A DNA stretch of 64,000 nucleotides from Chiloscyllium plagiosum (GCF_004010195.1 NC_057717.1:103940282-104004281), one strand, 5' to 3'. Positions 1-37,645 are shown, counted from the stretch's first letter. Notes: generated by a model from the letters alone, not told the origin. Made by a program: numbers and translations.

Positions 1-173
1 CTCCTCTAGCTTATCTCTCCACGCTTCAGGCTCTCTGCCTTTATTCCTGATGAAGGGCTTTTGCCCGAAACGTCGATTTTGCTGCTCCTCGGATGCTGCC
101 TGAACTGCTGTGCTCTTCCAGCACCACTGATCCAGAATCTGGTTTCCAGCATCTGCAGTCATTGTTTTTACCT
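1..173 (+). mobile_element. Penelope-like element terminal repeat fragment (family A)
   Basis: CCTGATGAAGGGCTTTTGCCCGAAACGTCGA...GGATGCTGCCTGA...CCAGCATCTGCAGTC; related copies recur many times in the window. Confidence 0.7.
43..78 (+). ncRNA. Minimal type-I hammerhead ribozyme motif (family A)
   Basis: CUGAUGA (47-53), extra A, GGGC-UUUU-GCCC, GAAA (67-70), CG, UC; cleavage predicted after 74. Stem I is short and imperfect. Confidence 0.6.
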
Positions 174-175
174 CC

Positions 176-640
176 GTGCTCTACGGTCTGTTCCCCGGGA
201 CGCACTCTGAGGTGAACATCAACTGTGCCTGGAGGACCATCAACTTGGTGAAAGAAGCACTTTGCTCTGCTCTGGAATGTGCCTATGCAGAGGAAGTCTG
301 GAGAGGAATGCAGTGGTGTTTGTCAAGGTTCGTCCCGAGTAGCTCCGTGACGAGGGACTCTGTGCTCTACGGTCTGTTCCCCGGGACGCAGTCTGAGGTG
401 AACATCAACTGTGCCTGGAGGACCATCAACTTGGTGAGAGAAGCACTTTGCTCTGCCCGAAACTTGCTGGTCTTCCAGCTGAAGGAGGTGACCCTGACTG
501 AGTGTTGCAGACTGGCACATTCCAAGGTCCAGGACTACGTGTTGAGGGACGCACTGAAGCTTGGGGCAGCTGCCGCCAAGGCGCGGTGGGGAAAGACCAC
601 CGTGTAAGGACCTCCTGCCAAAGAACAACGTGGGGCCCAT
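176..640 (+). mobile_element. Tx1/L1-clade non-LTR retrotransposon 3' end, with internal duplication
   Basis: ORF ...LECAYAEEVWRGMQWCLSRF...VLYGLFPG...ARNLLVFQ...YVLRDALKLGAAAAKARWGKTTV* resembles a Tx1-type ORF2 C-terminus. 176-269 is duplicated at 362-456. Confidence 0.65.
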
Positions 641-2387
641 TCAGTGGGATTAGAATTGTTTGGTGGCTGATTTTGACTGGCCCAATTATGATGGGCTGAA
701 GGGCCTTTCTCTGTGCTGTCGCCCTCTGTGACTCCAAAAGATGAAGTGCCATCAAGTGTTTGGAATTGATCGCGGCTTGTAAAGTGCTGGAGTGGAGACT
801 GCACAAGGGCTTGAGGTGAGCAGAAATCACCAATAGGAAAAGAACATCAAGGGACTGGGCAAATTGGCAAGAAGGAAAGTGGACAAGCTCAAAACTCCTT
901 GGCTTTTTGGGTCTGCAAGGCAGAGAACCCATTAATGAAGAAAGAAAGCTCTACAAATAAAATCAGAGGCAAGGCTTGAGGCATGTCACCCAAACGTCAC
1001 AAAATCTAATAAATGATAAATAAAACTGGATGGGTTCTGTCAGAGCTCCACTGTTTAGAACGGTGATGAAACACTCATTTGTTGTGAGGAGATCACTTGT
1101 GGGCCTGCAGACAGCGAGCTCTCCTTATCTGTGCTCCTGTAAAGTTTCTGTCATTTGTCAACACCATTCCCTGTTTATTTATGCATTTAAAGAAAAAAAA
1201 CAGAGAAGATTGCATTGGAGTGTGTGCAATTTCGAAAAAGAGAGTAGCAGCAAACACATACAAATACAGAGATTTCTTGGTGGGAGTAAATTGGCATCTT
1301 CTTCAAATCTGACCTCTTGCACATCCAACACTTTCACAGTTTCACCACTGCCATCACACGTCAACTGCCCCAGCCTCATGTTAGAGTATTCTGCCCTTAA
1401 CCTTCCTACCTTCCGTAGGACAGGATAGCAACCTACCGTGGAGCAAGTGTTCAGTCACCGAACCTAATATCGTCCTTTGTGCTTCAGTGTCAAATTTTGT
1501 TCGAGAATTCACTTCTGCGAAGTTTTACGTCGCTGATGGTGCCCTATAAATACGGGCCACTATTGGTGGGGTTAGGCAGATCCCAGCGTGAAAACACACA
1601 CACACACTGTTGTGCAATGTCATGGAAAACCTCTTTTCTGCACAAGTTATCACTGGTATACAGCCCCAGCTGTATGACACTGGTACATAAGTCTCTCTCG
1701 CAGGCAGTCCCTCAGAGGGTGTGCAGTTCCTTGCATACATACACACGCATGATAATGCTATTCAGCTCTGAGATCAGTGCTGTAGCTTTGTAAGAATTGA
1801 AACATTGTCCTGTTAACTGGTCAATTACCATATGAATCTGCTGAATGGCATCCGGCTGCCATTAATGCACTGAATACTGGTACTGAACCTCAAAGGGCAA
1901 GCTTTCACACTTGTCAGTTTAATGTGGCCTAGAATTTTATTGACCAGTCCTGCAGGGATAAATTACAAAGAATTACTGAAAGATCAATCAATGGAGTGTA
2001 GTTTTTCAGTTTTGGATAAATGGAAAACAGTAAAAGTATTAACCTATTTTACCCAAATAAAACCTTTTAAAATCCAATTGACTATCTTGACCCGTGTTTC
2101 TTTTTAGCTGAACACAGGTGCGTTAAGCTCACTGTCAGGTTGTGGTATAAAGAGCGCTCCAGCAAGCAGCTAAAAGCCAAGAAAGACATTGTGCGGCATG
2201 TTATCAGTATTACATAGTGCATTCCACTAAGTAAAGACAGGAAAACCTGCTGTCGGCAGTCACACAACATACATCGTACCAGCCGGGAAACTGACTTCAC
2301 AGTACAAGGTGCATAAATAGAAATAGAAATTGCTGGAAAAGCTCAGCAGATCTGGCAGCAATCTGATGAGAGAAATCAGAGTTAATG

Positions 2388-3385
2388 TCATAGAGCTATA
2401 GAGATGTACAGCATGGAAACAGACCCTTCGGTCCAACCCGTCCATGCCGACCAGATATCCCAACCCAATCTAGTCCCACCTGCCAGCACCCGGCCCATAC
2501 CCTCCAAACCCTTCCTATTCATATACCCATCCAAATGCCTCTTAAATGCTGTAACTGTACCATCCTCCACCACTTCCTCTGGCAGCTCATTCCATACAAT
2601 GCACCACCTTCTGTGTGAAAACATTGCCCCTTGGGTCCCTTTTATATCTTTCCCCTCTCACCCTAAACCTACGCCCTCTAGTTTTGGACTCCCCCAGCCC
2701 AGGGAAAATACTTTGTCTATTTATCCTATCCATGTCCCTTGTGATTTTATAAACCTCTATCAGGTCACCCCTCAGCTTCCGATGCTCCAGGGAAAACAGG
2801 CTCAGCCTGTTCAGCCTCTCCCTGTAGCTCAGATCCTCCAACCCTAGCAACATCCTTGTAAGTCTTTTCTGAACCCTTTCAAGTTTCACAACATCTTTCC
2901 GATAGGAAGGAGACCAGAATTGCACGCAATATCCAAACAGTGGCCTAACCAAAGTTCTGTATAGCCGCAATATGACCTCCCAACTCCTGTACTCAATACT
3001 CTGACCAATAAAGGAAAGCATACCAAACGCCGCCTTCGCTATCCTATCTACCTGCAACTCCACTTTCAAGGAGCTATGAACCTGCACTCCAAGGTCTCTT
3101 TGTTCAGCAACACTCCCTAGGACCTTACCATTAAGTGTATAAGTCCTGCTAAGATTTGCTTTCCCAAAATGCAGCACCTCACATTTATCTGAATTAAACT
3201 CCATCTGCCACTCCTCAGCCCATGGGCCCATCTGATCAAGATCCCGTTGTAATCTGAGGTAACCCTCTTCGCTGTCCACTACACCTCCAATTTTGGTGTC
3301 ATCAGCAAACTTACTAACTATACCTACGTTCATATCCAAATCGTTTATATAAATGACAAAAAGTAGTGGACCCAACACTGTTCCT
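2388..3385 (-). mobile_element. CR1 LINE, 5'-truncated
   Basis: 263-aa ORF LGPLLFVIYINDLD...KFADDTK...LYRTLVRP...RLRGDLIEVYKI, followed by a CR1-type 3' UTR and ctctat tail. Confidence 0.92.
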
Positions 3386-3821
3386 TGTTCGGTTTAGGTT
3401 GAAGAAAGACACATATGCTTGAGATAAGCCCTAATGAATTTACAATATGAGCAAGGGCATTGCAGGGGTCCTCAACTGTGGGGGATAAAGGGAGCCAGGA
3501 AAATATACAAATAGGAAGGGTTTAGAGGGATATGGGTCAAATGCTGCCAAATGGGACTAGATCATTGAATGATTTCAAGGGGCAACCAAATATAGCACCA
3601 GGGAGGAGTGGGACCAAACATTATGGGGAGAAAGCAGCATTGGGCTATTAAGTTGGGCAAACGGCCATGATCATGATGAATGGTGGAACAGGCTCAAAGG
3701 GCTGAATGGCCTCCTCCTGCTTCTATCTTCTATGATTCTATTAATTTAGGGTATCTGGTCGGCATAGTCGAGTTGGACCGAAGAGTCTGTTTCTAGTCCA
3801 TATAAAGCTATGACTGAAGCA

Positions 3822-4235
3822 TGATTTGGAGATGCCGTGCACCCTCTCACAGACTTAAGACAGTCTGCACCCACTGCACACACACATACACTCTCTCACA
3901 CTCACAACCCCCAACCCAGACACACACACACACACACACAGACAGACAAAGACCCACATGCACACATATATTTTGTGGGGTGAATTTGTACTTGCAGGGT
4001 TACATTGTACTTTGCTCAAAAACTGTGAAACTAACATGGTCATTCAAACAGATGAGAGACTTAACAAACAATCAAGGTATTTTTCAATGTATAATTTCAG
4101 TAAATTTTTGCTATAAATTCTGTGTTAGGATCGAGCCCTCCACAACCACCTGATGAAGGAGCGTCGCTCTGAAAGCTAGTGTGCTTCCAATTACACCTGT
4201 TGGACTATAACCTGGTGTTGTGTGATTGTTAACTT
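3822..4235 (+). mobile_element. Penelope-derived insertion (family B) containing a (CA)n tract
   Basis: Perfect 13-bp TSD TATGACTGAAGCA at 3809-3821 and 4236-4248; carries a hammerhead motif. Confidence 0.75.
4147..4181 (+). ncRNA. Minimal type-I hammerhead ribozyme motif (family B)
   Basis: CAC-CUGAUGA-A-GGAGC-GUC-GCUCU-GAAA-GC-UA-GUG: stem I CAC/GUG, stem II 5 bp, palindromic AGCU at stem III. Confidence 0.65.
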
Positions 4236-4403
4236 TATGACTGAAGCAGACATCAAAACTTCCAACAGGGGCAGTTAGATGGACGCACTTCTCTTTTAGA
4301 CCAAATGTGTCACACTATTATATAAAAGAGGCAACTTGCCCAAATACCCACTTATCCCAGTGTTAACATTCGTGAAATCATCCTGCATTAAAGTCATCAT
4401 TAC

Positions 4404-4565
4404 CCATGAATCCAATTCCCAGAGGAGGAGACGGCAGGTATTTGGAAGCCGCACTGAGCAGCGGATCGAGGTGCTCTGTCCCTGCTGCAACTTTACTCGG
4501 ATCCCAGCTTCCGCTGCAGAATCTCCGGATCTTTTTCCCTAGGATTCCATTCACTTCTAACAGGG
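4404..4565 (-). CDS. SLC27A1: SLC27A1 coding exon 3
   Basis: 162 bp, acceptor tttctattccAG, donor GTAATG. Encodes ALLEVNGILGKKIRRFCSGSWDPSKVAAGTEHLDPLLSAASKYLPSPPLGIGFM(D), in frame with exon 2. The next exon (YIYTSGTTG motif) was not found in the window. Confidence 0.9.
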
Positions 4566-5704
4566 CTGGAATAGAAACAAAAGGTATAAACCAATCAGGT
4601 GTAGCCCGAGGCAGCGACAGTGCTTCCAGCCTGCTGCAGTCATGGTGCGTTTACTGCATTCTGGCCACAGAACTAACACTGTGACACTCTGTGAGCAACC
4701 CAAATCAGAGATTTTCAAAAATGTGAAATGCAGGTTTGGTGCAGAAAGAGGGTTAATTTAGAAGAAACCTCATAAATCAAGATTAAACTTCATGGACTTG
4801 GGCCAGGATTTAACAAAGCAGGAGGCCATTTGGCCCATTCTATACGAGCTAGCCCTTGGTAAAAGCTAGGCCATTTTCCTTTTGGGAAGACGCTATTGAA
4901 CTCTGTTCTCCAACCTTTTGAGAATTGGAAAGCTCTGGGCTGGTCTATCAATCCCAAGCGGACAGTGCACTGGGCAAAGGGTTAGGCATTGTCAGTGGTC
5001 TCATTTCTAAGAGAACCTGATGTTGGAAACCTCTGTCCATCTTGTCGGTAAGGCTTTCACTTCCTCCTAACGAGCTTGTGTATCATGCGATGACACAAAC
5101 ACATCAACAGACCATACAGCCTGTTACGCCCACACAATGAGCCCTGCCCCTCCTGCTCTTACACTAGCCCTAACTGTTTCCTTTTGAAGTATTTCTCCAA
5201 TTCCTTTGAAAGGTATCCAATTTGCTTCCAACACCTTTATAAGGAATTCATTAGGGAAACAGGTGCAGTACAATAGTGCATCCAGCTAAGAGACTGGGTG
5301 ATACAGCCTTGGCTATTTTCCAGGGCAGTGCCGGACTTTCACCCATCACCTTTACCCCAATCCATATTCTGCATTAAGGGTCGATAGGTATAGGTGGCAG
5401 GCCCTTGATTGAGATCTCTAGCACAAAGATGGAAAGAGTTACCACTCCAGGGAAATAGGTGCAAAGTCCAGGTCATCACTCCAGCTGAGAGAGTGCTGCA
5501 CTGACAGTGATGCTGTATTTATGGTGACAGGTATAATCGTTTGCTCTTTCCAGGCTGCTGTGCACAAGTTGGCTGCATAATGCCCTGTTAAATGACTGGG
5601 AATGCTGTGTGTGTGTGTGTGGGTATACGCATATGTGTCTGTGTGCACGCGTGTGCCTGTGAATTGCAGGCGCTTGTCTTTTTAGCTGTATACTGCAGAC
5701 TCAC

Positions 5705-6099
5705 CATCGTTCATCTCTGCGCCAAAGATAATGGCCTTGGCTCCTGACACAGACAGGCAGTGAGTGAGTGCGTCGAGGCGGAGATTGAAGTTGAGCAGTG
5801 CCCCCTCCACTCCAACTTTAGCCATCCCAAGCCACAGCCCGACAAACTCCGGCCTGCTCTCCATGAACAAGGCAATGACATCACCCGGTCCGTAGCCTTG
5901 CTCCCGAAGGAAGTTGCCCACGGCATTGGAATACTCGTCGAGGTCCCTGAAAGTCCACTTTTCGTCAACCCCTTCATAAATGAGGGCAACCTTATCTGGG
6001 TGTTTCTGCACTGTGTCGTGAAAGATCTTCGGGATAGTGCTGTCTTCCCGTTGGTGTTTCCATACAGCTAACTTAACCCTCAGCAGCAACAACAGACCA
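5705..6099 (-). CDS. SLC27A1: SLC27A1 coding exon 2
   Basis: 395 bp, acceptor ctctttggcAG, donor GTGAGT. Encodes [19 protein letters not shown]...[12 protein letters not shown]...[16 protein letters not shown]...[21 protein letters not shown]...IIFGAEMND, typical of the FATP N-terminal domain. Phase continues from exon 1. Confidence 0.95.
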
Positions 6100-6432
6100 C
6101 TGCCAAAGAGGGGAAAAAGAAAAACCACACACCATTACTTTACATTTCATTCTCCAGGGAACTTGTGAAATCACAGATAACCAACAGGTGCTCCAGTCAG
6201 AGATATGATCTGCAGTTTTTCACCGAAAGCCTAACTGGTGACTACCATTGATTGTCGGAAAACATCCTACCTGCGCTGCTACGGTCCTTGAAGGAACAAA
6301 ATCCGCTTTCCTGACCTGGTCTGGCCTGACTGTGACTCCAGAACCACAGCAAAGTGGTTTACTCTAAAATGCTCTCTGAAATGGCCAAACCAAATATTGC
6401 CCTTGAGCTAATTTGGGGATGAGCAGTAAATG

Positions 6433-6627
6433 GGCTGAAAATGTGTTGCTGGAAAAGCGCAGCAGGTCAGGCAGCATCCAAGGAACAGGGGAATCGACGT
6501 TTCGGAAGAAGGGCTTATGCCCGAAACGTCGATTCTCCTGCTCCTTGGATGCTGCCTGACCTGCTGCGCTTTTCCAGCAACACATTTTCAGCTCTGATCT
6601 CCAGCATCTGCAGTCCTCACTTTCTCC
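6433..6627 (+). mobile_element. Penelope-derived fold-back insertion (family A)
   Basis: Inverted arms 6434-6505 and 6521-6592; perfect 14-bp TSD ATGAGCAGTAAATG at 6419-6432 and 6628-6641. Confidence 0.8.
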
Positions 6628-6709: not shown

Positions 6710-7366
6710 AAGATAGTGAAGAAGGCGTTTGGTATGCTTTCCTTTATTGGTCAGAGTATTGAGTACAGGAGTTGGGAGGTCACGGTGCGGCTGTACAGGA
6801 CATTGGTTAGTCCACTGTTAGAATATTGCATGCAATTCTGGTCTCCTGCCTATCGGAAAGATGTTGTGAAATTTGAATGGGTTCAGAAAAGATTTACAAG
6901 AGATGTTGTTAGGGTTGGAGGATTTGAGCTGTAGGGAGAGGCTGAACAGGCTGGGGCTGTTTTCCCTGGAGCATCAGAGGCTGAGGGGTGACCTGATAGA
7001 GGTTTATAAAATCATGAGGGGCATGGATAAGATAAATAGACAAAGTCTTTTCCCTGGGTTGGGGGAGTCCAGAACTAGAGTTGATAGGTTTAGGGCGAGA
7101 AGGGAAAGATATAAAAGAGGCCTAAGGGGTAACTTTTTCTCGCAGAGGATGGTACGTGTATGGAATGAGCTGCCAGAGGAAATGGTGGAGGCTGGTAACA
7201 TTACAACATTTAAGAAGCATTTGGATGGGTATATGAATAGGAAGGGTTTGGAGGGATATGGGCCGGGTGCTGGCAGGTGGGACTAGATTGGGTTGGGATA
7301 TCTGGTTCAGCATGGACGGGTTGGACCGAAGGTCTGTTTCCGTGCTGTACATCTCTATGACTCTAT
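6710..7366 (+). mobile_element. CR1 LINE 3' fragment
   Basis: KAFGMLSFIGQSIEYRSWEV...RLRGDLIEVYKIMRG...WNELPEE; same subfamily as 2388-3385. Confidence 0.9.
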
Positions 7367-8299
7367 GAGCGGCGCTGGAAAAGTACAGTAGGTCAGGCAG
7401 CACCCGAGGAGCAGGAAAATCGATGTTTCACCTCTTGTCCCCTTTTTGCCCTCCTGATTTCCCTCTTAAGTACACTCCTACTGCTGTAATGCTCCTTTAA
7501 GGATTGACTCGATCTCTCCTGTCTATACCTGACATATGCTTCCAGACACAAAGAGACAGACAGAGAGAGAGAGAGAGTGGTGGACAGGCAGTCAGAGAGA
7601 TTGAGATGGAAGTTTATCTGTGATATGGAAATAAGTGTTTCCTGACTTCCCCCCGAATGCCTTGACTCGAATTTTAAAATGATACTCCCTTTTGCTCGAT
7701 ACCCTGACTGGAGATTTTAATTAGTCTGTCCCAGCCTGTTCAAATCCATTTAAAATCCCAAGAGAACACACCTCAATCGTCTCCAAACACAGCTGACGAT
7801 CTTCCTCACTGAAGCCTGAGCCCTTCCCAAAAGAATCTTAATTTTTAAAAATGGCCTTCTCCAGGCCTAGGCTATGGGAAAGATAAGGAAGCAACTCCTC
7901 ACGAGCCTCTCCAACAATCGGAAACAATGTTATCCACAATACTGGTTTCAGCAGAACTGGCACAAGCTTGCTGGCGACAGACCAGGAAGATTTGAGCAAT
8001 GCTTGCAATTCAACCCACTGTTCGCCTCCCAGAAACGATGGCTCACATTTCACCAGGCCTTCGGGAGAGGAAGTGTGACCAAGTGAACTTCAAATCACGT
8101 GAACCTGTGTAACCTTTGGAGAGAACCTGCACCCATGTTAGAAAAGGTCCAGAAAGCTTAGTCACTTTCAGAAGCTGTTTTCTGTTAATAAATTTCTTTA
8201 GGCAAGATCGCTGTGCAGATTAGACTTTTAATTACAGTTACAGAACTTTTCCAACTTTCCTACACGTAGGGTAAACAAACTATTTTAAAGATTGACAGA

Positions 8300-10792: not shown

Positions 10793-11091
10793 TTAGATTA
10801 GATTCCCTACAGTGTAGAAACAGGCCATCCAGCCCAACAAATCCACACAGTCCCTCTGAAGAGCAACCCACCCCCCTACATTTACCCCTTCACCTAACAG
10901 TATGGGCAATTTAGCACGGCCAATTCACCTAACCTGTACATTTTTGGACTGTGGGAGGAAACCGGAGCACCCGGAGGAAACCCACTCAGACACGGGGCGA
11001 ATGTGCAAACTCCACACAGTCAGTTGCCGGAGGTGGGAATTGAACCCGGGTCTCTGGCGCTGTGAGGCAGCAGTGCTAACCACTGTGCCGC
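10793..11091 (-). mobile_element. tRNA-derived V-SINE (HE1-like)
   Basis: Reverse complement of the GGTTAGCACTGCTGCCTCACAGCGCC head, the GTGTGGAGTTTGCAC...GGGTTTCCTCC core and a (TAATC)n tail. Confidence 0.85.
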
Positions 11092-11194: not shown

Positions 11195-11312
11195 AGAAAG
11201 TGAGGAGTGCAAACGCTGGAGCTCAGAGTCGAGAGTTTGGTGCTGGAAAAGCACAGCGGGTCAGGCAGCATCCGAGGAGCGAGAGAATCAACATTTCGGG
11301 CATAAGTCCTTC
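11195..11312 (-). mobile_element. Penelope-derived fragment (family A), hammerhead core truncated
   Basis: Reverse complement matches the family A terminal repeat but lacks CTGATGA. Confidence 0.65.
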
Positions 11313-13699: not shown

Positions 13700-13903
13700 G
13701 TTTGGAGGAGCCGGTGTTGGACTGGGGTGGACAAAGTTAAAAATCACACAGCACCAGGTTATAGTCCAACAGGTTTATTTGGAAGCACTAGCCTTCGGAG
13801 CGCTGCTCCTCCACAACCACCTGATGAAGGAACAGCGCTCCGAAAGCTAGTGCTTCCAAATAAACCTGTTGGACTATAACCTGGTGTCATGTGATTTTTA
13901 ACT
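13700..13903 (+). mobile_element. Penelope-derived fold-back insertion (family B) nested in an old CR1
   Basis: Inverted arms of about 78 bp (13733-13810 and 13828-13905); TSD TTCCCCT(C/A)ATG at 13689-13699 and 13904-13914. Confidence 0.78.
13818..13852 (+). ncRNA. Minimal hammerhead ribozyme motif (family B)
   Basis: CAC-CUGAUGA-A-GGAAC-AGC-GCUCC-GAAA-GC-UA-GUG, with one mismatch in stem II. Confidence 0.6.
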
Positions 13904-14084
13904 TTCCCCTAATGATTAGCCTAGACCCAGATGGTATATCCGGAGAGTAAGTTAGGGCTGAGATGAGGAGGAATTTCTTCTCTCAGCGGTGAGTCTTTGG
14001 AATTCTGTATCACAGAGGGCTGTTGAGGCTGGGTTGTAGATATATTTAAGGTTGAGATAGGCAGATTTTGAATCAGTGAGGAAT

Positions 14085-19961: not shown

Positions 19962-20688
19962 TTCCTATCGATGGTGCCCCCTGTTCCTGTCGATGGTGCT
20001 CACTGTTCCTAGAGATGGTGCCCTCTGTTCCTATAGAAGGTGCCCACTGTTCCTGTCGATGGTGCGCTCTGTTCCTGTCGATGGTGCGCTCTGTTCCTGT
20101 CGATGGTGCCCTCTGTTCCTATCGATGGTGCGCTCTGTTCCTATCGATGGTGCCCTCTGTCCCTACAGATGGTACCCTCTGTTCCTATCGATGGTGCGCT
20201 CTGTCCCTGTCGATGGTGCCCTCTGTTCCTATCGATGGTACCCTCTGTTCCTATCGATGGTGCCCTCTGTTCCTATCGATGGTGCCCTCTGTTCCTATCC
20301 ATGGTACCCTCTGTTCCTATCGATGGTGCCCTCTGTTCCTATAGATGGTGCCCTCTGTTCCTATCGATGGTGCCCTCTGTTCCTATCGATGGTGCGCTCT
20401 GTTCCTATCGATGGTGCCCTCTGTCCCTACAGATGGTGCCCTCTGATCCTATAGATGTTGCCCTCTGTTCCTATCGATGGTGCCCTCTGTCCCTACAGAT
20501 AGTGCCCTCTGTCCTTACAGATGGTGCCCTCTGTTCCTATAGATGGTGCCCTCTGTTCCTATCGATGGGTGCCCTCTGTTCCTATCGATGGTGCGCTCTG
20601 TTCCTATCGATGGTGCCCTCTGTTCCTATCGATGGTGCATACTGTTGCTATAGATGGTACACGCTGTTCCTGTCGATGGTGGCCTCTG
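19962..20688. repeat. 22-bp minisatellite (ATCGATGGTGCCCTCTGTTCCT)n, about 33 visible copies
   Basis: Direct tandem units; runs into the gap, so the true length is unknown. Confidence 0.95.
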
Positions 20689-21684
20689 TGTCAGTGGTGA
20701 AGGGAGTGAATGTTGAACCTTAACCCTATAGCAGGTGCCATTCAAATGGGCTGTTTTGTCTTGGGTGACATTGAGCTTATTGAGTGTTGTTGTAGCTGTG
20801 ATAAATAACAATTAGAGTCCCTGAAGTTTTACACAGACCTGCGGTAAGGGCAGGTTTGGATAGTTTGGCCAGCGAACACCTTTGTGTGCCGTTGCAATCA
20901 GAGGTTTGGCCTTAGTTTGAATGTGCAGCTTGTTTAGATGGAGAAAGCTGGTAATGATTTACACTGTCACAAAGTACTGCACTCCCACATCGTCCTTAAA
21001 TCATTCCTAAGTTGTCAGCACTTCCAGTGAACAAACAGAACTAGGGCAGAAGATGTGGAACACTTTAACCTAGTTACTTACTCAAAACTTGCAAAGCAAT
21101 ACAGTGTTTTGTTCATGTTCAGCGAACTGGCTGTGCCCCACAGAGGGCTCTCAGCTCAGGCAGTGTTTGGGGGAGGTGGGGATGGGGGGTTGCCTCGACA
21201 CCTTGTCTAAACCAGAGTCAGCCTGACCTTTCATGGATACAGTAAATTGGTGGATATGTTCATCGGATAATAAGTCAGGGACCTGAACTAATTATCATAA
21301 GAGTCATAAAAAGCGCCATCTTGTTTATCAGTATCCTTTAGGGAAGGAAATCTGCCATCCTCACTCAGTCTGGCCAACATGTGACCCACAGCAATGTGGT
21401 TGACTCTTAACTGCCCTCAGAATTGACCCAAACCATTTGTGGCTCACTACTGCCTTCTGAAGGGGTAGGAGTTTACGGGCAATAAATGCTGCCCTTACCA
21501 GCAATGCCGCCACTCTGTTAGCGACAAGAGATGACACTTCCGCAACTTCCTGTCTTTCCCTGTGCACGGATGTTGATTGGTCCACTGCAGTGTTTTGAGC
21601 CTCAGTCCCTGGTTTCCCCACGTTTGTGGAGTGTTGCTTTCGGTTGTCTGTCCCACTGACAGTTCCATTCCGTTTTCTGGCCAG

Positions 21685-23789: not shown

Positions 23790-25335
23790 GAGCTAAGGAT
23801 AGATAAGTCTCCTGGCCCTGATGGAATGCATCCCAGGGTTCTAAAAGAGATGGCGGGAGAAATAGGTGGACTGGCAGTAATTTTCCAAAATTTGCTGGAC
23901 TCTGGGGCAGTCCCAGCAGATTGGAAAACAGCAAATTGATGCCACTGTATAAAAAGGGAGGTAGACAAAAGATGGGGGATTATAGACCAGTTAGCTTAAC
24001 CTCTGTAGTGGGGAAGATGCTTGAGTCTGTTATCAAGGAAGAAGTAGCGGAGCATCTTGAAAGAGATTGTCCCATTGTACAGACGCAGCATGGGTTCATG
24101 AAGGGCAGGCCATGCTTCACATATCTTTTGGAATTCTGTGAAGACATTTCAAGCAACGTGGACAAAGGGGACCCAGTGGATGTGGTGTACCTAGATTTCC
24201 AAAAGGCCTTTGACAAGGTGCCACACAAGAGGCTGCTGCATAAGATAAGGATGCAAGGCATTATGGGTAAAGAATTAGTATGGATAGAGGATTGGTTTGC
24301 TAACAGGAAGCAAAGAGTGGGGATAAATGAGCGCTATTCTGGCTGGCAATCAGTAACTAGCGATGTGCCTCAGGGATCAGTGTTGGGACCACAATTATTC
24401 ACAATTTATAAAGATGATTTGGAGTTGGGGACCACGTGTAGTATGTCAATGTTTACAGATGAGACTATGATTAGTGGACTCTGAAACTTTGTAGAGGAAC
24501 AAGGATACTATGACTGAGTGGGCAAAGGTCTGGCAGATGGAGTACAACGTTAATAAATGTGAACTCCTATATTTTGGGAGGAGTAATAGTAAAACAGACT
24601 ATTACATGAGTGGTAAAAAGTTGTAGCATGTGCAGAGGGACCTGGGTGTCACAGAGGGTTGGTCTGCAGGTACAACAGGTAAATAGGAAGGCAAATGGAA
24701 TATTGTCCTTCATTGCTGAAGGGGTTAAGTTTAAAAGCAGGGAGGTTATGTTGCAGCTGTACAAGGTGCTGGTGAGGCCACACCTGGAGTACTATGTGCA
24801 GGTTTGGTCTCCTTACTTGAGAAAGGATGGACTGGCACCGGAGGGGGTGCAGAGGAGGTTCACCAGGTTGGTTCTGGAGTTGGGGGGGGGCGGTTGGCTT
24901 ATGAACAGAGATTGAGTAGACTGGGATTATATTCATTGGAATTCAGAAGAATGAGGGCGGGCTCTTATAGAAATATAACTTTTATGAAGGGAATAGATAC
25001 GATAGAAGTAGAGAGAATGTTTCCACTGGCAGGTGAAACTAGGACAGGAGGCATAGCCTCACGATTAGGGGGAGCAGATTTAGAACTGAACTGAGAAGGA
25101 ACTTCTTTACCAGAGGGTTGTTAATCTGTGGAATTCCCTGCCCAGGGAAGTTGTCATCACTACTTCAGTAACTAAGGTAGATATGTTTTTGAACAGTAAA
25201 GGGATTAAGGGTTACAGTGAGCAGGCAGGTAAGTGGAGCTGAGGCCATGGAAAGGTCAGCCATGGTCTTATTGCGTGGCGGAGTGGGCTCGATGGGCCAA
25301 ATGGCCTACTCCTGCTCCTGATTCTTATGTCCTAT
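23790..25335 (+). mobile_element. Decayed CR1 LINE with RT domain
   Basis: DKSPGPDGMHPRVLKE...YRPVSLTSVVGK...QHGF...YLDFQKAFDKVPH...VPQGSVLGP, interrupted by stops, frameshifts and deletions. Confidence 0.92.
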
Positions 25336-26508: not shown

Positions 26509-29500
26509 TTCGATGAATCGAGTACTGGGCAGTTAACAATGTTTCTCTTTTTAAAAAAAAAATCACCAAGAAAAGGATGAAGGGCTTGACTTGTCTGAAG
26601 AGTTAAATTAAAACCTGCCCAGAGCAAGAAAAAAACAAATGTGAAATGAAACATTGGCTAACTTTAGAGAGCTGAGTGTGATCCCATCTGAGTACTGTTT
26701 GTCATAAAGAGCGAACTCTTGTTTCTCCAGGTGACTGTCAGGATGGCTCATAATCTGCACTCAATGCCCTCCGTTCCAATCTCCAATCTAGAATTCATAC
26801 ATTGGAAGAAGCAATACTGATGCCTGAGGAGGAGGGATGGACAGATCTGATTCCGTATCACCACCACTCGAGCAATTAAACTCTCCTACAGCTTGCTTCA
26901 TCCGTTCCATTGTGCCCTTGCAAACACACCATGTGCTCAGAGTCCAGAAGATGCACTAAGCTGTTAACTCTCTACAGGAACGCTGGCTTCAAATGCGAGC
27001 ATTACCAATGTCTCTCTCCCTTTGCCCTCACTGCAGTCTGCCCACAGCCAACCATTCTGTGCTAAACCTCCAATCTCTCTATAATCCTGTGTTGTTTTTT
27101 TTTGATTAATTACATGTGGCTGCAGTCACAGAGCAGTTACTACACAGAAGGAGCCCTGTCTGCCCCACATGCTCCCTTTCACCCTGCCCTCTGAACTCGG
27201 TTTACCATTGTGCAACTGCAAGTGGCCGGGGAGATGTTTTGGGGTCGCACGGGGGGGCAATGAGATTCTGTGCCCCAGCCTGCCTTGGTAAATTCTTTGC
27301 AACAAGGATGTGGCTCATTATCCTGTAACAACCGTGTCCGTGCATTCACCGACAGGGGCTCAGAAAGGCTTGATTCACTATCCAGTTGTCTGAACCTGGA
27401 AACTAGACAGATTTCTTCCTTAAAATGATTTGGTCGTTAATGCTCAACATGGCTACGCTCAACTTATGGTCAATGAGAACATTGAAGGAAAATGAGTTGA
27501 GTTTGCAGTGGTTTGACCAATGTTCTTGCCAGTTAGTCCCTTCATCCTCCTAAATCTATTCACCCTCAGTAGATGCACTACCACTCAACTTATGGTCAAT
27601 GAGAACATTGAAGGAAAATGAGTTGTTGAGTTTGCAGTGGTTTGACCAATGTTCTTGCCAGTTAGTCCCTTCATCCTCCTAAATCTATTGACCCTCAGTA
27701 GATGCACTACCACCTCTAATGGAGGTTTATATGACTCGTGATCAAACAAAATGTATCCTTTGACTTTGCCCCACCCCCTTTGCCAAAAGTGAAAACTCCC
27801 AAAATATTAGCCGACTGCTTTTTAAAGTTTTGAAATAATTTTGGTGTTTAAGTCAGGGTAACCTCATTAATCCGCCCTGAATGTCAAAAGGCAAACTTCC
27901 CGCTTAAGGTCAGACACACCCAACCTGCTGTACCAGGGTCTGCAGTCCCAGCCACATCCCAATTCTGGGCTCAGTCTCTGGCTTTGCTGCAAGGAAGGGT
28001 GGGTACCCTAACTCCAGTGTCGGCATTGGCCTGCCAATCTCCACGGAATCAGCCTTGAATTCAGGCCTGGGTTGGAAGATTAAGCACTGTTCCTGCTGGA
28101 GGACGGAAAGAGGAAGTGGGTTGCAGTAAGGGGAAGTAAAAGCATTCTGGTGCACGTTCGCTTGGTCTGGGACAGTTTCACTCCCTAACAGAATGAATTT
28201 GCTGTTCCCCTCACGGAGCAAGATGGGCAAACAATACTGATTCCTTGCTGTGGTGCCAACCCCACAACAGGAGCTGCTGTAAACACAGGCCCAGTGACGC
28301 TGAGAGCATGGATATTGAAGGGAAATGCTGTCAGTAACATCCTCTGCCACTATTACTTTAAATGTTTCCTGACAGGCCAGTCATACAGTGCTCTTACCTC
28401 AGTTATGTTAGAACAGTGTATAAACACTACTGTAGATTTGTACCTGTCCTATTCCCCTCTGTCTATACCTCTGAGATACTCCCTCCTGATGACTCACTGC
28501 TTCCTTCCGATTCCCAGCCAACTCCTTGTCAATAAGACATTCTTCACACAAGTCAGTGTGACTTATGTGTCACTTGGTGCAGAATCATAACATCTTGTGA
28601 TTGATATTCAGACTCGGCTTTCTCTCTGGAAGGGGTGACTGGGCAATGATCAGGCGTGCCCAGCCTTCATGGAACCTCCCTCACCCTCTAGCCCCCTCAT
28701 TCAGGGTCAGAGAGCTTGTCTGGTGTGCAATTGCTGCTATCTTCATCGCAACTGGAACCAACATACAACTGGAACCAACTATTTTGAATAGGCCAGTTAG
28801 GTCAGCGCTGTGTCCTCTCTAACTGTTCACAGTCCAACTTTGACTGACTTTGTCTGCATGAGACTGAATGATCTCTGGTTGCTGCTGCACTCTCCACTTT
28901 TAACTGTCTGCCTCTTCCCCCCCCCCCCCACTCCCCAGGTAACGGAGTCAGTGAAGTGTTTCTGAGGTTAGTGCAAAGCTAGTCTCAACCGAAAGGAGAT
29001 TGTCAGTGATGGGAGGTTTATGGGCAGTGCAAGCGATTGGCTGTGAGACAACAGTGTGCTGTAGATAAGGAAACGTTTTGATTATTACATTTCGGAACCG
29101 GCACAAGAGTCTGGTTTGTAAAATTTGTTGGAAAACTTGCCCGCAGCCTGTCTGTCCAGCACCAGATAAGGCCCCGTCTGAAGAACAGCCTGTTTGAGGC
29201 CCCATTGTTATTTTTCTAGAAGTCAGGATATTAGCAGACACCTCGCAGCAGCTTTGGTCCCTATCTCATCCTCGCTGCACCTGGGAATAACCCCTCATCC
29301 CTTCCATTGATCCCTGGAGCAGAAACATGGCGTGGGGACCAACAGGAATGGTCCCGGGATGTGGGAAACAAAGGTGTTCGGAGTCGGGAGAGGTGGGGGA
29401 GGTGAAGTTGCAGGGTGGAGTTGGAAAGGGTGGTTAAGGTTCCATCTCCTAAATATCCCAGGGCTTTTTTTTAAGGGAGAGAGAGCAGGGGGGAAAGTCA

Positions 29501-30384: not shown

Positions 30385-30655
30385 AGTAGAAACTCCACGG
30401 TGTGGAATCCGGCCATTCGGCCCATCGAGTCGACACCAGCCCTCTGGAGAGCGTCCTACCCAGGCCCAATCTCCTCTACCCTACCCCTGTAACCCTGCAT
30501 TTCCCATAGCTAATTCACCCAGCCTGCACACTACGGGCAATTTAGCATGGCCAATCCACCTAACCTGCACGAGAATGTGCAAACTCCACACAGTCACCCG
30601 AGGCTGGAATTGAACCTGGGTCCCTGGCGCTGTGAGGCAGCAGTGACCACCACAG
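30385..30655 (-). mobile_element. V-SINE, diverged
   Basis: Reverse complement of the V-SINE consensus seen elsewhere in the window. Confidence 0.75.
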
Positions 30656-31531
30656 AGGTGGGATTTCACCAGAAGCTAGATCCAGTGTCACGTTTAGGGA
30701 CATTCCTGTTGGTCCCCCAGCCATGTTTCTGCTCACTCTGGTAAGTAGACCTTGCGTGTTTTACAATCTGCGATGTCCCTTAACCACACCTAGTATTTGA
30801 GTAAAGGATAGTGACTGTCCACCTTAGACTCTGTACACCAGTCACTAAATATTACCAAGAGAAATAGTTCTGTTTTAAAAAGCAGACTGAATGCACACTG
30901 TCAGACCCATCAGAGTGGTTTTATTTTAAACAAATTGATAATTGCCTTGTTTCTTACATTCCAACAGTGACTGCATTTCCAGATGAATTTAATTGGCTGT
31001 GAATCACATCTTTCTCCTCTCACCTTAAAAATATGCAGCTAGTTTTGAACTCCCCGAACCTAGGGAAAACACCCTTGCTGTTCACCCTATCTATGCCCCT
31101 CATGATGTTACAGACGTCTATACAGTCGCCCATCAGCCTTGCCAGTGGACACTCAAATCTTGCATTCCCAGCAATATCCTAGTAAATCTTTTCCGATCCA
31201 TCTCCAATTTAATAATATCCTTCATATATCAGGGCAACCAGGACTATATTCCAGAAGAGGCCTGATCAGTGATATCACAAAAATGGAAGTAGATAGTCTT
31301 GGTGGAGTTGATATGGGTTCAGAAACTTTGCAGCTTCAAATGCAAAAAAAAGAGATTCAATGTCAAATAGCAGCCGGGAACTGATGAGAACCTGAACTTT
31401 GTGAAAAGTTATTTTCCTACATTAACAAAACTTCATTTTTTGTCCAGTTGCCCAGGTATCTCCTAATGCTGTGTATCCACCACATTCTATGCACGGTGTT
31501 TAAGGATATTCTGAAAAGAATATTGCAAAGG

Positions 31532-31845
31532 ACGGTACGGTGGCTCAGTGGTTAGCACTGCTGCCTCACAACACCAGGGACCCTGGTTTGATTCCAGCCT
31601 GGAGCAACTGTGTGTGGAGTTTGCATATTCTCCCCATGTCTGTGCAGGGGTTTCCTCCCACAGTCCAAAGATGTGCAGGTTAGGTGGATTGGCCATGGGA
31701 AATTGTCTTGTAGTGTCTAAGGATGTGCAGGCTTGGTGGGTTAGCCATGGTAATCTCAGGGTTGCGAGGATAGGGGCTGGGTGCCAAACTTTACAGACTT
31801 AATGGGCTGAAGGGCCTCCCTACAAACTGTAGGGATTCTATGACT
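31532..31845 (+). mobile_element. V-SINE
   Basis: GTGGCTCAGTGGTTAGCACTGCTGCCTCAC head and V core. Confidence 0.82.
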
Positions 31846-32641: not shown

Positions 32642-33090
32642 CACAGAGTCGGAGAGGTGTACAGCACGGAAACAGACCCTTCAGTCCAACTCATTATCTG
32701 GTCCCATTTGCCAGCACTTGGCCCATATCCTTCCAAACCCTTCCTATTCATGCCCTCATCCAGATGCCTTTTAAATGTTGTAATTATACCAGCCTCCACC
32801 ACTTCCTCTGGCAGCTCATTCCACACACGTACCACTCCTTCTGCATGAAAATGTTGCCCCTTCGGTCCCTTTTAAATCTTTCCCCTCTCACCTTAAACCT
32901 ATGCCCACTAGTTTTGGTTCCCCTACCCTGGGGAAAAGGCCTTGGCTTTTCATCCTATCCATGCCCCTCATGATTTTATAAACCTCTATAAGGTTTTATA
33001 AACCTCTGTACCCCTCAGCTTCCAACGCTCCAGGGAAAATTCAGCCTCTCCCTGTAGCCCAAGCACTCCAATCCCGGCAACATCCTTGAA
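32642..33090 (-). mobile_element. CR1 3' fragment
   Basis: Minus-strand VRVWNELPEEVVEAG...FKRHLD plus CR1 3' UTR. Confidence 0.85.
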
Positions 33091-33756
33091 AGGGCTCAGA
33101 AGATTTACAAGTTTAACAGCATCTTTCCCGTTGAAAACAAAAAATGCTGGCAATCACAACAGGTCAGGCAGCCTCCGTGGAGAGAGAGCGTGAGCTAACA
33201 TTTTGAGTCTAGATAATTCTTCATCAGAGCTTGCTCTCTCTCCATGGAGGCTACCTGACCCGCTGCGATCTGCAGCCCTTTCTGTTTTCAGTACGGATTC
33301 CAGCGTTGGCAGTAATTAGCTCCAAGGTATGTCCTACAGCCGGGAGACCAGAATTGAACGGAGTGTGCCAAAAGGATTCTCCCCAATGTCCTTAAAGGGC
33401 CAGACCATGGGAGATGGTGCTGCGGCAGAGGCCTATGTTTTTGGTGGAGTTGGAATCCCTCCGGTTTGGTTCAGTAAAGGGTGGGCCTGTGCCTTTTGAG
33501 GAGAGCAATAAGGAACTCCGTTATAGCAGCTATTAATCAAGAGGAGGCGAGCGTGTGGTGCTGGGAAAGCACAGCAGGTCAGGCAGCATCCGAGGAGCAG
33601 GAGTATCAATGTTTCGGGCAAAAACCCTTCATCTGGAGGGTAGAGGCCAGCGAACGGTTTCCAGCTCCACCTTGTTATTTTGTGAGGCCACACATGGGGA
33701 TATGCACAGCCCAAGGATAAAACCTTTCTCTTTTCCTCCTTCATTTTGCTTAGCGA

Positions 33757-34146
33757 GTTTTGAGAAGATTTATAGCTCAGGTTGAGGTTCTGGATGTAGG
33801 TTTGCTCGCAGAGCTGGAAGGTTCATTTCCAGACGTTTCGCCACCCTACCAGTTAACATCTTCAGTGGGCCTCTGGGCGAAGCCTGCTGACCCTCTCTCA
33901 CTAGTATCCTCACATACGGATGAGGAAGGACACCACTTTGAATGGGACAACACATCCATCCGAGGACAAGTGAAACAGAGACATGTATGAGAATTCCTAG
34001 AAGTGTGGCATTCCAACTGGAACTCTATCAACAAACACATCGAGTTAGACCCCGTCTACCACCCCCTGAGAATAATAACAGGAAATGACATCACCACAGG
34101 AAATGACATCACCAACCCAAACATATAAATAGAAAACAGGAATCAT
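33757..34146 (+). mobile_element. Penelope-like element fragment (family C): inverted terminal repeat plus ORF C-terminus
   Basis: Decayed ORF HTDEEGHHFEWDNTSIRGQVKQRHV*EFLEVWHSNWNSINKHIELDPVY resembles the PLE GIY-YIG C-terminus. Preceded by an inverted segment carrying a hammerhead motif. Confidence 0.7.
33829..33868 (-). ncRNA. Minimal hammerhead ribozyme motif (family C)
   Basis: Minus strand CCA-CUGAAGA-U-GUUAAC-UGGUAG-GGUGGC-GAAA-CG-UC-UGG; stem I CCA/UGG. Confidence 0.6.
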
Positions 34147-34523
34147 TTTGCTTGGAAGGAACTGCCTCATTTCCATTTTTACCACCATCAGTCCAGAGCT
34201 CAGTCAGTCTGGACTGGGTACAGTTTCTGCATCACTCTCCATCCCCTCACTGCTGAACGCAAAACCTCTTTTTAACAGGGAAAGTTTCTTTTTTTAACAT
34301 TTTCAAAACCTTGGTAATTTATGGATGTCAGCTCCTTCAGACAACAATTAGAATAACACCGCTCAGGGGCTCTGCCATTCGGTCCATTGTGACTGTGCTG
34401 GCTGCTTGAAGGAGCTCTCCAGTTACGTCCCACTCTCTTACCCCAAACTCAGCAAGTTCCCACCTTCCAGTATCTATTCCAACTGCTTTTAAAAACTTAC
34501 TGTTGAATCAAGACCTTCAGGCT

Positions 34524-34855
34524 GTGAGGAGAAAGTGAGGACTGCAGATGCTGGAGATCAGAATCAAAGAGTGTGGTGCTGGAAAAGCACGGCCGGTCAG
34601 GCAGCATCCGAGGAGCAGGAGGGTCGAGCATACGCCCTTCATCAGGAATGTGGAGAGGGGGCACCAAGGGGACTGAGAGGTGAATGGGAGGGAAGGGTGG
34701 GGCAGGAGGGGATGATCCCACTCCTATTCCTCCCCAGTCCTGGGGAAGTGTTTCAGCCTGAAACGTTGACTTTCCTGCTCCTCGGATGCTGTCTGACCTG
34801 CCGTGCTCTTCCAGCTCCGTATCTATTGACTCTGACTTCCAGCAGCTTCGGTCCT
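34524..34855. mobile_element. Penelope family A inverted pair
   Basis: Reverse copy at about 34524-34660 and forward copy at about 34755-34850. Confidence 0.7.
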
Positions 34856-35136
34856 CCCTGGCTCCCATTCCTTCCCTTTCTTGTAGCTTTACTCGTTGGA
34901 TTCTCTGTCACCATGTCCTCTCTTGTCTCCACCCAAGCCCAGTGAGACTGTCTTCTTTCCAATCTGGGAGTTAGACACACACCATTGTTCTTCCAGCCTC
35001 ACGTTCCAATCCCCACTTTATCTGAACTATCAACACCCTTTCTTTCCCCAGAACTCCATCCCACCCCTTCCATTATTACATAAATGTTGCCCCTCTATCT
35101 AGACTCGAAACTTGCTGTCTCTGCATTGTTTTATTC

Positions 35137-35407
35137 TAGATTCCCTACAATGTGGACACAGGCCCTTCAGCCCATCAAGTCCACACCGACCCTCCGAAGA
35201 GTAACCCACCCAGACCCATTCCCCTCTGACTAATACACTTAACACTATGGGCAATTTAGCATGGCCAATTCACCTGAGGAGGAAACCCACACAGACACGG
35301 GGAGAATGTGCAAACTCAACACAGACATTTGCCCGAGGCTGGAATTGAACCTGGGATCCTGGTGCTGTGAGGCAGCAGTGCTAACCACTGTGCCACCGCG
35401 CCACCCT
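35137..35407 (-). mobile_element. V-SINE
   Basis: Reverse-complement V-SINE with an internal deletion. Confidence 0.82.
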
Positions 35408-35881
35408 TAGTTACTATTAAATCTGCTTCTGTCACCCTTTCAGTCAGCTCATTCCAGATCCTAGCAACTGGCTGTGTTTAAAATATGATCCTTATCTGCT
35501 CCTTGCTTCTGGGCGTGTTACCTGCTTGTCCTATGAAAAAAAGGTTAGGTCTATACTCATTCGAGGAATAAAAGGTGATCTGAATGAAATGTGAAAAAAA
35601 GAATGCCATTTTAGGGTGGGTGCACTCAGCCTTTTTCCCAGGGTTTGGGAATCGAGGACCAGAGGGCATCAGGTTAAAGACGAATAAAAGGGAACCCGAG
35701 GGGCAACTTTTTTACCCAGAGGGTGAGATGCGTATGGAATGAGCTGCCAGTGGAAGTGGTTGAGGAGGGTACACTAACAACATTTGAAAGGCATCTGGAC
35801 GAATACATGGAGAGGAAAGGATTAGAAGGATGTGGGCCAAGTGCAGGGAAATGGGGTTAGCGTGGATGGACATTTTGGTCG

Positions 35882-36598
35882 TGTTATGTCACAGGTTAAA
35901 CTCTCCTGCTTAATTTAAAACTAGCAACACAGAAAAGATTTATCCCATGCAGCAATCTGTAAACGTTCGAGTGGCCAAAAACTATGTAAAGTAAAAATTA
36001 ACAACTTTGTTTCTTAAAGTATAACAGAGAATAATTAATTAACCCCTATTTACAATTTCTTTCTCTAACCTATCTTTTACCTTCCCTTCTATAATACTAG
36101 TCCAATAACACTCCCAATTAAGATTTACAAAACCACATTTCATATCTCAAAACCAGGCAGCGGTAAGTTCTTGTCTTCAAATTTTCCTGTGTCATCTTTT
36201 CTCCTTGTTAGGAATTTCTGCAGTCACAGGTTACTGATCAAAAAGGGACTTTTAAGAGAGATATTTTTTCAAGCAGTCTACATGCTAGGACTTGGCAGTT
36301 CTCCTCTCAACTGTTCAACTTTCCCCCTGGTCTTATACCCCAGACCATCGAATTGTGTCATTGATTTTAAGATTGTCAATATTCTCAATTCAAACTTGAT
36401 TGGAAATTGGTATTTTTTCAGGGTATAATTTAAACTGATTGGCCAAATACAAATATGATTTTGTCTCCAGGCAACTAGTCAATCAAGTTGTTCGACCAAG
36501 CGTTACATACATTGTTGCCTTATTGAGAACACTTGGTGCTGTGTCCGGTAGTTCTGCTGCTTTTAACTCTCTTAAAGTACACCCACATCTTCATACCA
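35882..36598 (-). mobile_element. Solo LTR (Gypsy-like), 717 bp, nested in a CR1 3' tail
   Basis: TGTTATG...CATACCA termini; 4-bp TSD GTCG/GTCA. The host CR1 tail resumes at 36599. Homologous to 63477-64000. Confidence 0.8.
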
Positions 36599-37444
36599 GT
36601 CAGCATGGACCAGTTTGGGCCGATGAGCCTTTCTCGGTGCTGTAGGACTCTACGACTCCTGGGGGCTGACTTTTAGCCACTCCTTCATCTGTTCAACTGT
36701 TTTTATGTCTTAATAAAAATGGAAAGAAGTGCAGATGCTGGAAATCAGGAACAAGAACAGAAATTGCTGGCAAAGTTTCAGCAAGTCTGGCAGCATCTGG
36801 GGAGAGAAATCAGAGTTAATGTTTCAGATCCAGTGACCCTTCCTCAGAGCAATTTTAAAATAAGAGGGCTCCTGCTTAAGACCGAGATGAGAAATTTCTT
36901 TGTTTGACTTTGGAGACTTGACCCCAGAGAGCACTGGAGGCTGGGTCATTGAATAAGTTCGAGGCTGCGTTTTTGATTGACGTCAGTCTAACCATGTTAG
37001 CGGCAGGCAAGAAGATTATTTTTATGACCACAATGAGATCAGCAAAGGTCTTATTAAACAGTGGTGCAGGTTTGAGGGGCCGAATGGCCTACTCCTTGTG
37101 TTTTGTAAGACTTTCATGCATTGCAGAGTTACTCCTGGGAAAAACAGCTGACCACATTAACCACAGCTGTGAGTAATGTTTCTATTTATTTTACAGCACT
37201 ACTTCCTTCGACAGTCCTACAACCCACCAAGACCTCTGTACTCTGATTCCAGCTTTTCCTGATTTGAATGACTACACCAGTTGGTGTTCAGGTGCCTGGG
37301 ACCCAGACTCTCGAATTCCCTCCCTAAGACTCAACACATCTCTCTTTTCCCCTTTAAAGATCATCTTTCAAACATAACTCTAACTCAGTTTGCCATCTAC
37401 CCTAATTTGCCTTGATGTGACTTAGAGTTGTATCGGTTAATGAG

Positions 37445-37645
37445 TCAGATTTGGAGGTGCCAGTGTTAGACTGGGGTGGACAAAGTTAAAAATCACACAC
37501 AGCTATAGTCCAACAGGTTTAATTGGAAGCACTAGCTTTCGGAGCGCTGCTTTTCACAACCACCTGATGAAAGAGCGGCGTTCCGAAAGCTAGTGCTTCC
37601 AAATAAACTTGTTGGACTGTAACCTGGTGTTGTGTGATTTTTAAC
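37445..37645 (+). mobile_element. Penelope-derived fold-back insertion (family B)
   Basis: Same structure as 13700-13903; TSD TTAATGAG at 37437-37444 and 37646-37653. Confidence 0.75.
37561..37595 (+). ncRNA. Degenerate hammerhead ribozyme motif (family B)
   Basis: CAC-CUGAUGA-A-AGAGC-GGC-GUUCC-GAAA-GC-UA-GUG; stem II is partly mutated. Confidence 0.5.

Follow-up and report, generated by a model that had tools for sequence, protein, structure and literature searches.

Minimal hammerhead motifs of three families, very probably Penelope-type, on dispersed repeats in a 64-kb stretch of the Chiloscyllium plagiosum genome

Penelope-like elements (PLEs) in their canonical, endonuclease-positive form encode a reverse transcriptase (RT) followed by a C-terminal GIY-YIG domain. 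The minimal type-I hammerhead ribozymes (min-HHRs) of PLEs, as presented by Cervera and de la Pena (2014; PMC4209133), have an extra base between positions 9 and 10.1 and a palindromic 15.2-16.2 step as hallmarks, and in that account and in a review (PMC6765202) they are thought to act as dimers via the palindrome, with low activity in vitro. Here we consider a 64,000-nucleotide stretch of the Chiloscyllium plagiosum genome (GCF_004010195.1, NC_057717.1:103940282-104004281; hereafter, the window), in which an earlier note, made from the sequence alone, had recognised five hammerhead motifs on Penelope-like repeats and predicted a large genome-wide load of such motifs. We conclude that the five motifs are very probably PLE-type min-HHRs of the pseudo-long terminal repeat (pLTR) or 3′ tail; the whole account, in which PLE-tail min-HHRs occur in three families and the window copies are mostly relics, we hold with nearly the same confidence. 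The kind of element is already described and these families are further members of the published PLE min-HHRs, although our literature search found no description of these particular three.

All five motifs, with their GUC or CUA cleavage sites, could be read directly from the sequence where the earlier note had placed them, and its division into three families is borne out both by the sequence forms of the motifs and by the commonest forms genome-wide. The motifs and the repeat copies that hold them are as follows.

47-74, forward strand: core of the family 1 motif, CUGAUGA-A-GGGC-UUUU-GCCC-GAAA-CGU-C, with a GUC site
2-173, forward strand: family 1 PLE 3′ tail, with the predicted cut after C74 and the element 3′ end at about 172-173
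4042-4238, forward strand: family 2 tail, with the hammerhead at 4147-4181 (core 4150-4178) and a CUA site
13733-13905: family 2 fold-back insertion, with an inverted arm at 13733-13810 (reverse strand), broken off inside the motif, and a forward arm at 13808-13905 (forward strand) carrying the hammerhead at 13818-13852 (core 13821-13849)
37482-37647: family 2 fold-back insertion, with an inverted arm at 37482-37546 (reverse strand) and a forward arm at 37555-37647 (forward strand) carrying the hammerhead at 37561-37595 (core 37564-37592)
33791-33890, reverse strand: family 3 copy, with the hammerhead at 33868-33829 (core 33865-33832) and a GUC site

Core positions C3-U4-G5-A6-N7-G8-A9 and G12-A13-A14 are present at all five sites. 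So are two features that the earlier note had singled out, namely the extra nucleotide between A9 and helix II (unpaired; U in family 3 and A in the other two) and the palindromic mini helix III, in which an A15.1-U16.1 pair encloses a loopless 15.2-16.2 palindrome (ACGU or AGCU) followed by an N17 other than G (ACGU-C or AGCU-A). Its background statements on PLE minimal hammerheads and the extra base agree with PMC4209133, where both features are presented as hallmarks; they are therefore typical of PLE motifs rather than unusual. The G10.1-C11.1 pair belongs to the commonest form of each of the three families and is kept in the window at sites 47, 13821 and 33865. Beyond it, helix II differs among families, with five pairs in family 2 (CUGAUGA-A-(GGAGC-NNN-GCUCC)-GAAA-GCU-A, with one or two helix II changes in each of the three window copies) and six in family 3 (CUGAAGA-U-GUUAAC-UGGUAG-GGUGGC-GAAA-CGU-C, reverse strand). 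The wording 'near-intact' was apt for the three family 2 copies, which carry helix II transitions: C11.1 to U at site 4150, leaving a G.U pair at 10.1-11.1; G10.4 to A at site 13821, leaving an AxC mismatch; and G10.1 to A at site 37564, leaving AxC at 10.1-11.1, together with one G.U elsewhere in the helix. The family 3 copy has three changes from its commonest family form, one of which breaks a helix II pair.

These motifs resemble the metazoan PLE min-HHRs of PMC4209133, as set out there, in type-I topology, core, extra base, G10.1-C11.1, loopless palindrome and short helix I, in the presence of several consensus families per genome, and in the position of the site beside an RT/endonuclease open reading frame (ORF). 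They differ from the Schistosoma families given there in having a helix II of 4-6 bp instead of 7-8 bp, and their helix I, with only 2-3 contiguous pairs, is borderline in length. A very short palindromic helix III is also reported for the small PLE-associated, dimer-cleaving variants of Lunse, Weinberg and Breaker, which we set beside ours only by their description in PMC6765202.

The repeats that carry the motifs were traced at other loci in the genome. The sequence common to family 1 copies begins a few dozen bases 5′ of the motif and reaches a fixed 3′ end approximately 100 nt past it, and the longer copies have the tail of an ORF directly 5′ of the motif. A six-frame genome search with this ORF tail drew 191,672 first-look candidates and yielded 170 matches. 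The reading frames continue through a CxxC...GIY...YIG region, which reached 23.1 and 23.5 bits with the Pfam GIY-YIG profile (cut-off 22.6) in two of eight locus ORFs and gave sub-threshold matches in two more of those eight and in two of three ORFs of another set. RVT_1 is annotated in 48 of 70 longer database homologues, and RVT_1 together with GIY-YIG in 18; a profile scan of one homologue (P0013) placed RVT_1 at residues 394-575 (42.4 bits) and GIY-YIG at 806-886 (32.4 bits), both above cut-off. Residues 226-800 of another homologue (P0002) are colinear in locus L055, and long stretches of it occur in L043, L047, L048 and L056. At 8 of the 19 loci fetched via the ORF tail, 51-88 nt separate the end of the RT and GIY-YIG ORF homology from the start of the motif; at the remaining loci, the pattern gave no motif within 600 nt, or the motif lies further away. 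Family 1 is thus a PLE tail whose carrier, an RT plus GIY-YIG ORF, is found at other loci. The window copy at 2-173 is 97.7% identical over 172 nt to the copy at locus L006, with contig and read boundaries at 172/173, and is probably the tail of a long PLE copy, because DNA farther 5′ of the window matches P0002 residues 78-115. At several fetched loci, too, the readable flanks of hammerhead tails match PLE protein.

A closely comparable vertebrate element, the anole Poseidon PLE PAc (PMC11167929), is likewise endonuclease-positive with a pLTR hammerhead and, in the account given there, has an optional tail extension of 30-40 bp; its ORF is described as starting inside the motif, whereas the family 1 motif lies 51-88 nt past the stop codon and approximately 100 nt before the 3′ end. 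The family 1 tail is nearly unchanged across several species labels: words sampled from window positions 1-175 were found (share 0.53-1.00) in public runs under four organism codes, so the family is shared among those labels. Directly after the motif, a block of approximately 80 nt (window 75-155) is common to subfamilies that differ upstream and further downstream, and family 1 similarity ends cluster at +80, +111-113 and +125-126 from C3; the block could be a protein-binding or initiation region of the element.

Most family 2 copies are short, and the assignment of a carrier rests on three places. At L018/L019 and L059, a PLE RT-like remnant lies 5′ of the motif in the same orientation (the L059 remnant corresponds to residues 334-673 of protein P0005), and at L015 a PLE C-terminus lies 478 nt 5′ of the motif. 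In the carrier seen at L018/L019 and L059, the ORF homology ends where the family 1 ORFs enter the GIY-YIG domain and is followed by approximately 340 nt of non-coding tail, the motif and approximately 90 nt to the element end, of which two variants occur that differ by approximately 40 nt in length. The endonuclease-less form matches 22 other places over all 501 nt at 96-99% identity (3,024 first-look candidates), and the window tail at 4042-4238 is 96% identical to the L019 copy over 137 nt. Family 2 can therefore be shown in part to be the end of an amplified, endonuclease-less PLE derivative. The Penelope-like carrier proposed in the earlier note accordingly stands for family 1, at 8 of 19 loci, and in part for family 2; for family 3 it did not emerge, as discussed below.

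The bare hammerhead core is by itself not enriched in the window (12 matches versus 6.86 ± 2.94 expected, with 6 of 100 shuffles reaching 12). A strict descriptor that combined the core with G10.1-C11.1, a paired helix II, a palindromic helix III and a non-G N17 matched twice in the window and never in the reversed window or in 100 first-order Markov simulations. The family 1 site at 47-74 satisfies it; the three family 2 copies do not, because each has helix II transitions, two of them at the 10.1-11.1 pair. Across 284,224 fetched bases, many from loci chosen for holding a motif, hits numbered 87 (reversed control, 0). In the 3.56-Gb assembly that contains the window, exact matches to the commonest forms numbered 19,641 for family 1 (loop UUNU), 12,631 for family 2 and 218 for family 3, each with none in the reversed control, and the looser patterns CUGANGA-N10-24-GAAACGUC and CUGANGA-N10-24-GAAAGCUA gave 138,121 matches (491 reversed) and 42,798 matches (111 reversed), respectively. 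These counts bear out the large load that had been predicted. By simple arithmetic, the density of loose-pattern matches, approximately 51 per Mb, predicts approximately three per 64 kb; five motifs in the window are therefore typical of the genome. The load is far above the approximately 4,000 motifs given for coelacanth and 9,000 for Xenopus in PMC4209133, although the descriptors differ and the figures are not directly comparable. Among the loose-pattern matches listed are further subfamilies, such as family 3 relatives and CUGAAGA forms whose loops read UUAU, CUGU, UCAU and UAAU.

The hammerhead fold appears to be under selection: core, extra base, G10.1-C11.1 and palindrome are kept, while the other helix II positions differ in sequence but stay paired. 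When helix pairs were tabulated by script across the three families, which differ in helix length, 10.1-11.1 stayed G-C, 10.2-11.2 was G-C or U-A, 10.3-11.3 was G-C, A-U, U.G, U-A or C-G, and 10.4-11.4 was C-G, G-C or A-U. The start of helix I also differs yet pairs in every family (G-C/A-U, G-C/U-A/G-C and U-A/G-C/G-C), and compensating helix changes occur among the family 3 relatives as well. Within a family, copies mostly depart from the commonest form by single-nucleotide changes in helix II, of which many are transitions, and compensation was not clearly seen among those compared. Stem covariation, whose absence across copies the earlier note had named as refuting its view, is thus seen between families, in helices I and II. 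In contigs of two runs, sites varying at ≥10% numbered 0 in 47-74, 7 in 81-129 and 5 in 22-41, which is no more than suggestive of constraint on the motif in master copies.

How the motifs would act can be outlined from the literature. In transcripts of master elements, a single motif would be unable to close helix III, and cleavage after GUC or CUA would occur only when two copies paired via the ACGU or AGCU palindrome, or with help from an element protein or a chaperone; such cutting would process multi-copy PLE transcripts. We rate it as slightly less likely than not that these families cut fast enough in vivo to be of use.

Several observations weigh against this account. Helix I has only 2-3 contiguous pairs with mismatches beyond, where approximately 4-5 bp of open helix I are expected of a PLE-type min-HHR (a Drosophila virilis variant with a helix I of 2 bp is described in PMC4209133). 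No Rfam hammerhead model matched the window at its gathering score or at E ≤ 10, so the motifs do not fall within the canonical type-I hammerhead class (Hammerhead_1 and related models, which include a closed helix III and loop-loop contacts); we attribute this to the lack of a closed helix III. Predicted monomer folds did not exceed shuffles in stability (z −1.01 to +0.67), most of them lacking the hammerhead pairing, and co-folded dimers did not form the shared helix III; in our view, such folding is uninformative for motifs this small. In one RNA run (X21, a single-cell polyA library of which approximately 2% was read), 769 reads covered 41-175, about equally on both strands, with no dip or pile-up of ends at 74|75 and no position listed at which many molecules start or stop, a weak test given the library type and the 2% sampling. 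Genomic copies are contiguous across the predicted cut and end at approximately 43 and at 172/173, not at 74/75, so the integrated templates were uncut at that motif, or religated. For the anole Poseidon element, PMC11167929 describes cleavage as protein-assisted and as dispensable for insertion in vitro and, in the RNA sequencing shown there, no ends at the cut site, as here. Finally, no PLE ORF was found within 1.5 kb of the family 3 motif at four loci or in the window; walking upstream led to units of approximately 300 nt, again in inverted pairs, and a distant RT-like remnant near one family 3 locus (L066) is ambiguous and proves no PLE link.

Several of these observations would also be expected if the motif were kept as part of a 3′-end RNA structure recognised by the PLE protein, for template binding or the start of reverse transcription, with cutting incidental or negligible. 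We consider this unlikely, though it fares best among the alternatives. The motif lies approximately 100 nt from the 3′ end beside the 80-nt block common to subfamilies; similarity ends cluster at +80, and 18 of 33 unselected family 1 matches start within 12 nt of C3; integrated copies are uncut and no read ends fall at the site. In PMC11167929, the anole element is described as initiating internally near its 3′ end and as not needing cleavage for insertion, and PLE clades that lack hammerheads are described as proliferating well (PMC8557442). A binding hairpin, however, would need neither a catalytic core nor G10.1-C11.1 nor a non-G N17, all of which are kept in three families with differing helices. 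Fungal PLE hammerheads, moreover, are reported to cut well as monomers and metazoan ones weakly as dimers (PMC4209133, in its account of activity), and the anole C3G and G8C mutants are reported to abolish cutting, which the double mutant partly restores (PMC11167929, in its mutant assays). We therefore continue to favour min-HHRs of PLE tails.

Less probable still is that units of hammerhead plus approximately 100 nt of tail form a lineage of parasites of the PLE machinery resembling short interspersed elements (SINEs), with a 5′ end set at helix I, instead of all being truncated copies that were inactive from the outset, a proposal that we rate as improbable. A boundary near position 43 recurs in reads and contigs, and the starts near C3 noted above would fit such units; both could equally be limits of subfamily similarity or fold-back junctions. 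If the proposal were true, the hammerhead-tail block would be a minimal mobilisable module, which would explain the approximately 1.8 × 10^5 core-intact motifs.

The arrangement of copies bears on two further alternatives. PMC8557442 gives as standard PLE features extensive loss of 5′ sequence, partial tandems, a truncated copy lying inverted beside the insertion and an optional tail, and the insertions seen here show 5′ truncation, an adjacent inverted truncated copy and an optional extension of approximately 40 nt. Among the first 100 family 2 matches, 10 pairs lie within 1.5 kb of each other, of which 9 are divergent, 1 tandem and 0 convergent (approximately 0.55 expected by chance, by arithmetic); counted as distinct family 2 places, 10 of 26 have a divergent partner and 1 a convergent one. 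Palindromic junctions have a variable apex, with spacers of 9, 15, 19, 34, 230 and 263 nt, and in the window this anatomy is seen at 13733-13905, 37482-37647, 6443-6615, 34540-34815 and 52649-52743, as well as at family 3 loci. Metazoan PLE min-HHR copies are likewise described in PMC4209133 as mostly single, dispersed and truncated, with opposite-strand pairs 100-700 bp apart.

It is accordingly very improbable that the repeats are non-LTR retrozymes, that is, short non-autonomous tandem repeats with one type-I hammerhead per unit, cut to unit length, circularised and copied back to DNA. There are likenesses: animal retrozymes are presented (PMC7229834; 10.64898/2026.07.22.740005) as non-autonomous units with type-I hammerheads and a proposed PLE origin, the preprint among these arguing for their descent from PLE pLTRs and recording them in the single cartilaginous fish that it covers, and the derivative that bears family 2 is endonuclease-less, hence non-autonomous, and amplified. 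Unlike the tandem arrays giving circular RNAs described in those two sources, however, the copies here are dispersed, truncated or folded back: Tandem Repeats Finder gave no array at any window motif; same-strand pairs within 1.5 kb numbered one (family 2) and two (family 1) among the first 100 exact matches, the usual partner being on the opposite strand; and the raw reads lent no support to any back-spliced or 'goes back' joint.

It is barely conceivable that the hairpins of inverted pairs are themselves the functional unit, for example as precursors of small RNAs or as type-III hammerheads whose helix III is long, and that the core boxes are incidental: the hairpins are very stable (13733-13880, a single hairpin, −93.9 kcal/mol, z −16.8; 6443-6615, −130.8 kcal/mol, z −19.8) and weak matches to Rfam microRNA models occur at 6464-6562 and 52635-52723, but the apex spacers differ (9-263 nt), which fits independent fold-back events rather than selection of a single hairpin, an inverted arm is lacking in many copies, and the adjacent inverted truncated copy is among the PLE insertion features described in PMC8557442. 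The microRNA-like matches (E 0.064 to 6.4, far under gathering scores) are spurious and mark fold-back repeat hairpins, since fold-back insertions form perfect hairpins. A type-III reading of the inverted pairs was rejected, as approximately 22 unpaired bases would separate N17 from helix I. Fold-back hairpins, if transcribed, would bury the ribozyme core.

Returning to hammerheads of PLE tails, the motifs and fold-back hairpins in the window are repeat relics and not independent ribozyme genes. Translated searches (tblastn) with 70 PLE proteins found no PLE coding sequence inside the window; because of this, because four of the five motifs have helix II defects and because two sit in fold-backs, the window copies are dead insertions and not working units. 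Most are truncated, decayed or fold-back insertions, which the earlier note overlooked, along with the absence of PLE coding sequence. Beyond the copies listed above, the window holds the following relatives.

6443-6615: decayed fold-back pair of family 1 (CUGAAGA subfamily), forward core CGGAAGA
33555-33637, reverse strand: decayed family 1 copy, core CAGAUGA, site GAAACAUU
34540-34815: decayed family 1 inverted pair, 34540-34618 (reverse strand) without the 3′ half of the motif and 34738-34815 (forward strand) with a mutated core
43826-43914, reverse strand: decayed family 2 copy, CUGACAA ... CAAAAGCUU, absent from the earlier note
54677-54793, forward strand: family 2 copy that lacks the hammerhead segment through a deletion
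7365-7429, reverse strand: family 1 tail fragment, 5′-truncated inside the motif
11238-11312 (reverse strand), 46316-46381 (forward strand), 52649-52743 (inverted pair), 56062-56101 (forward strand) and 2331-2370 (reverse strand): similar family 1 fragments

Two RVT_1 fragments in the window, at 2587-3393 (reverse strand) and 23822-24484 (forward strand), were set aside as possible carriers, since they gave no match to any of the 70 PLE proteins; they are presumably elements of the long interspersed type, unrelated to the hammerhead repeats. An open frame at 5682-6134 (reverse strand) matches positions 1-99 of the Pfam AMP-binding enzyme profile (E 3.6e-23) and probably represents an exon from a host gene for an acyl-activating enzyme; the repeats here may lie in the introns of that gene. 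At 19962-20689, a 22-nt unit is repeated 33 times in tandem (88% matches), which accounts for overlapping long ORFs in all frames at approximately 19.3-20.7 kb, and at 27458-27713 a 129-nt unit occurs twice in tandem, the copies being 96% alike. A short repeat family (D8) has six copies, at 11001-11087, 30571-30657, 35306-35392, 38363-38449, 43335-43421 and 56349-56435; by eye, it resembles what we take to be a tRNA-derived SINE.

Together, these results bear on the role of hammerheads in PLEs, for which the proposals include transcript processing, the making of circles and carriage as a passenger. The genome contains both autonomous and endonuclease-less carriers and many copies of several families, which are young, as judged from the 97.7% identity of one window copy to another copy and the 96-99% likeness among copies of the family 2 derivative. 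It is thus a convenient test bed for cleavage by such motifs and for their need of a dimer or a protein.

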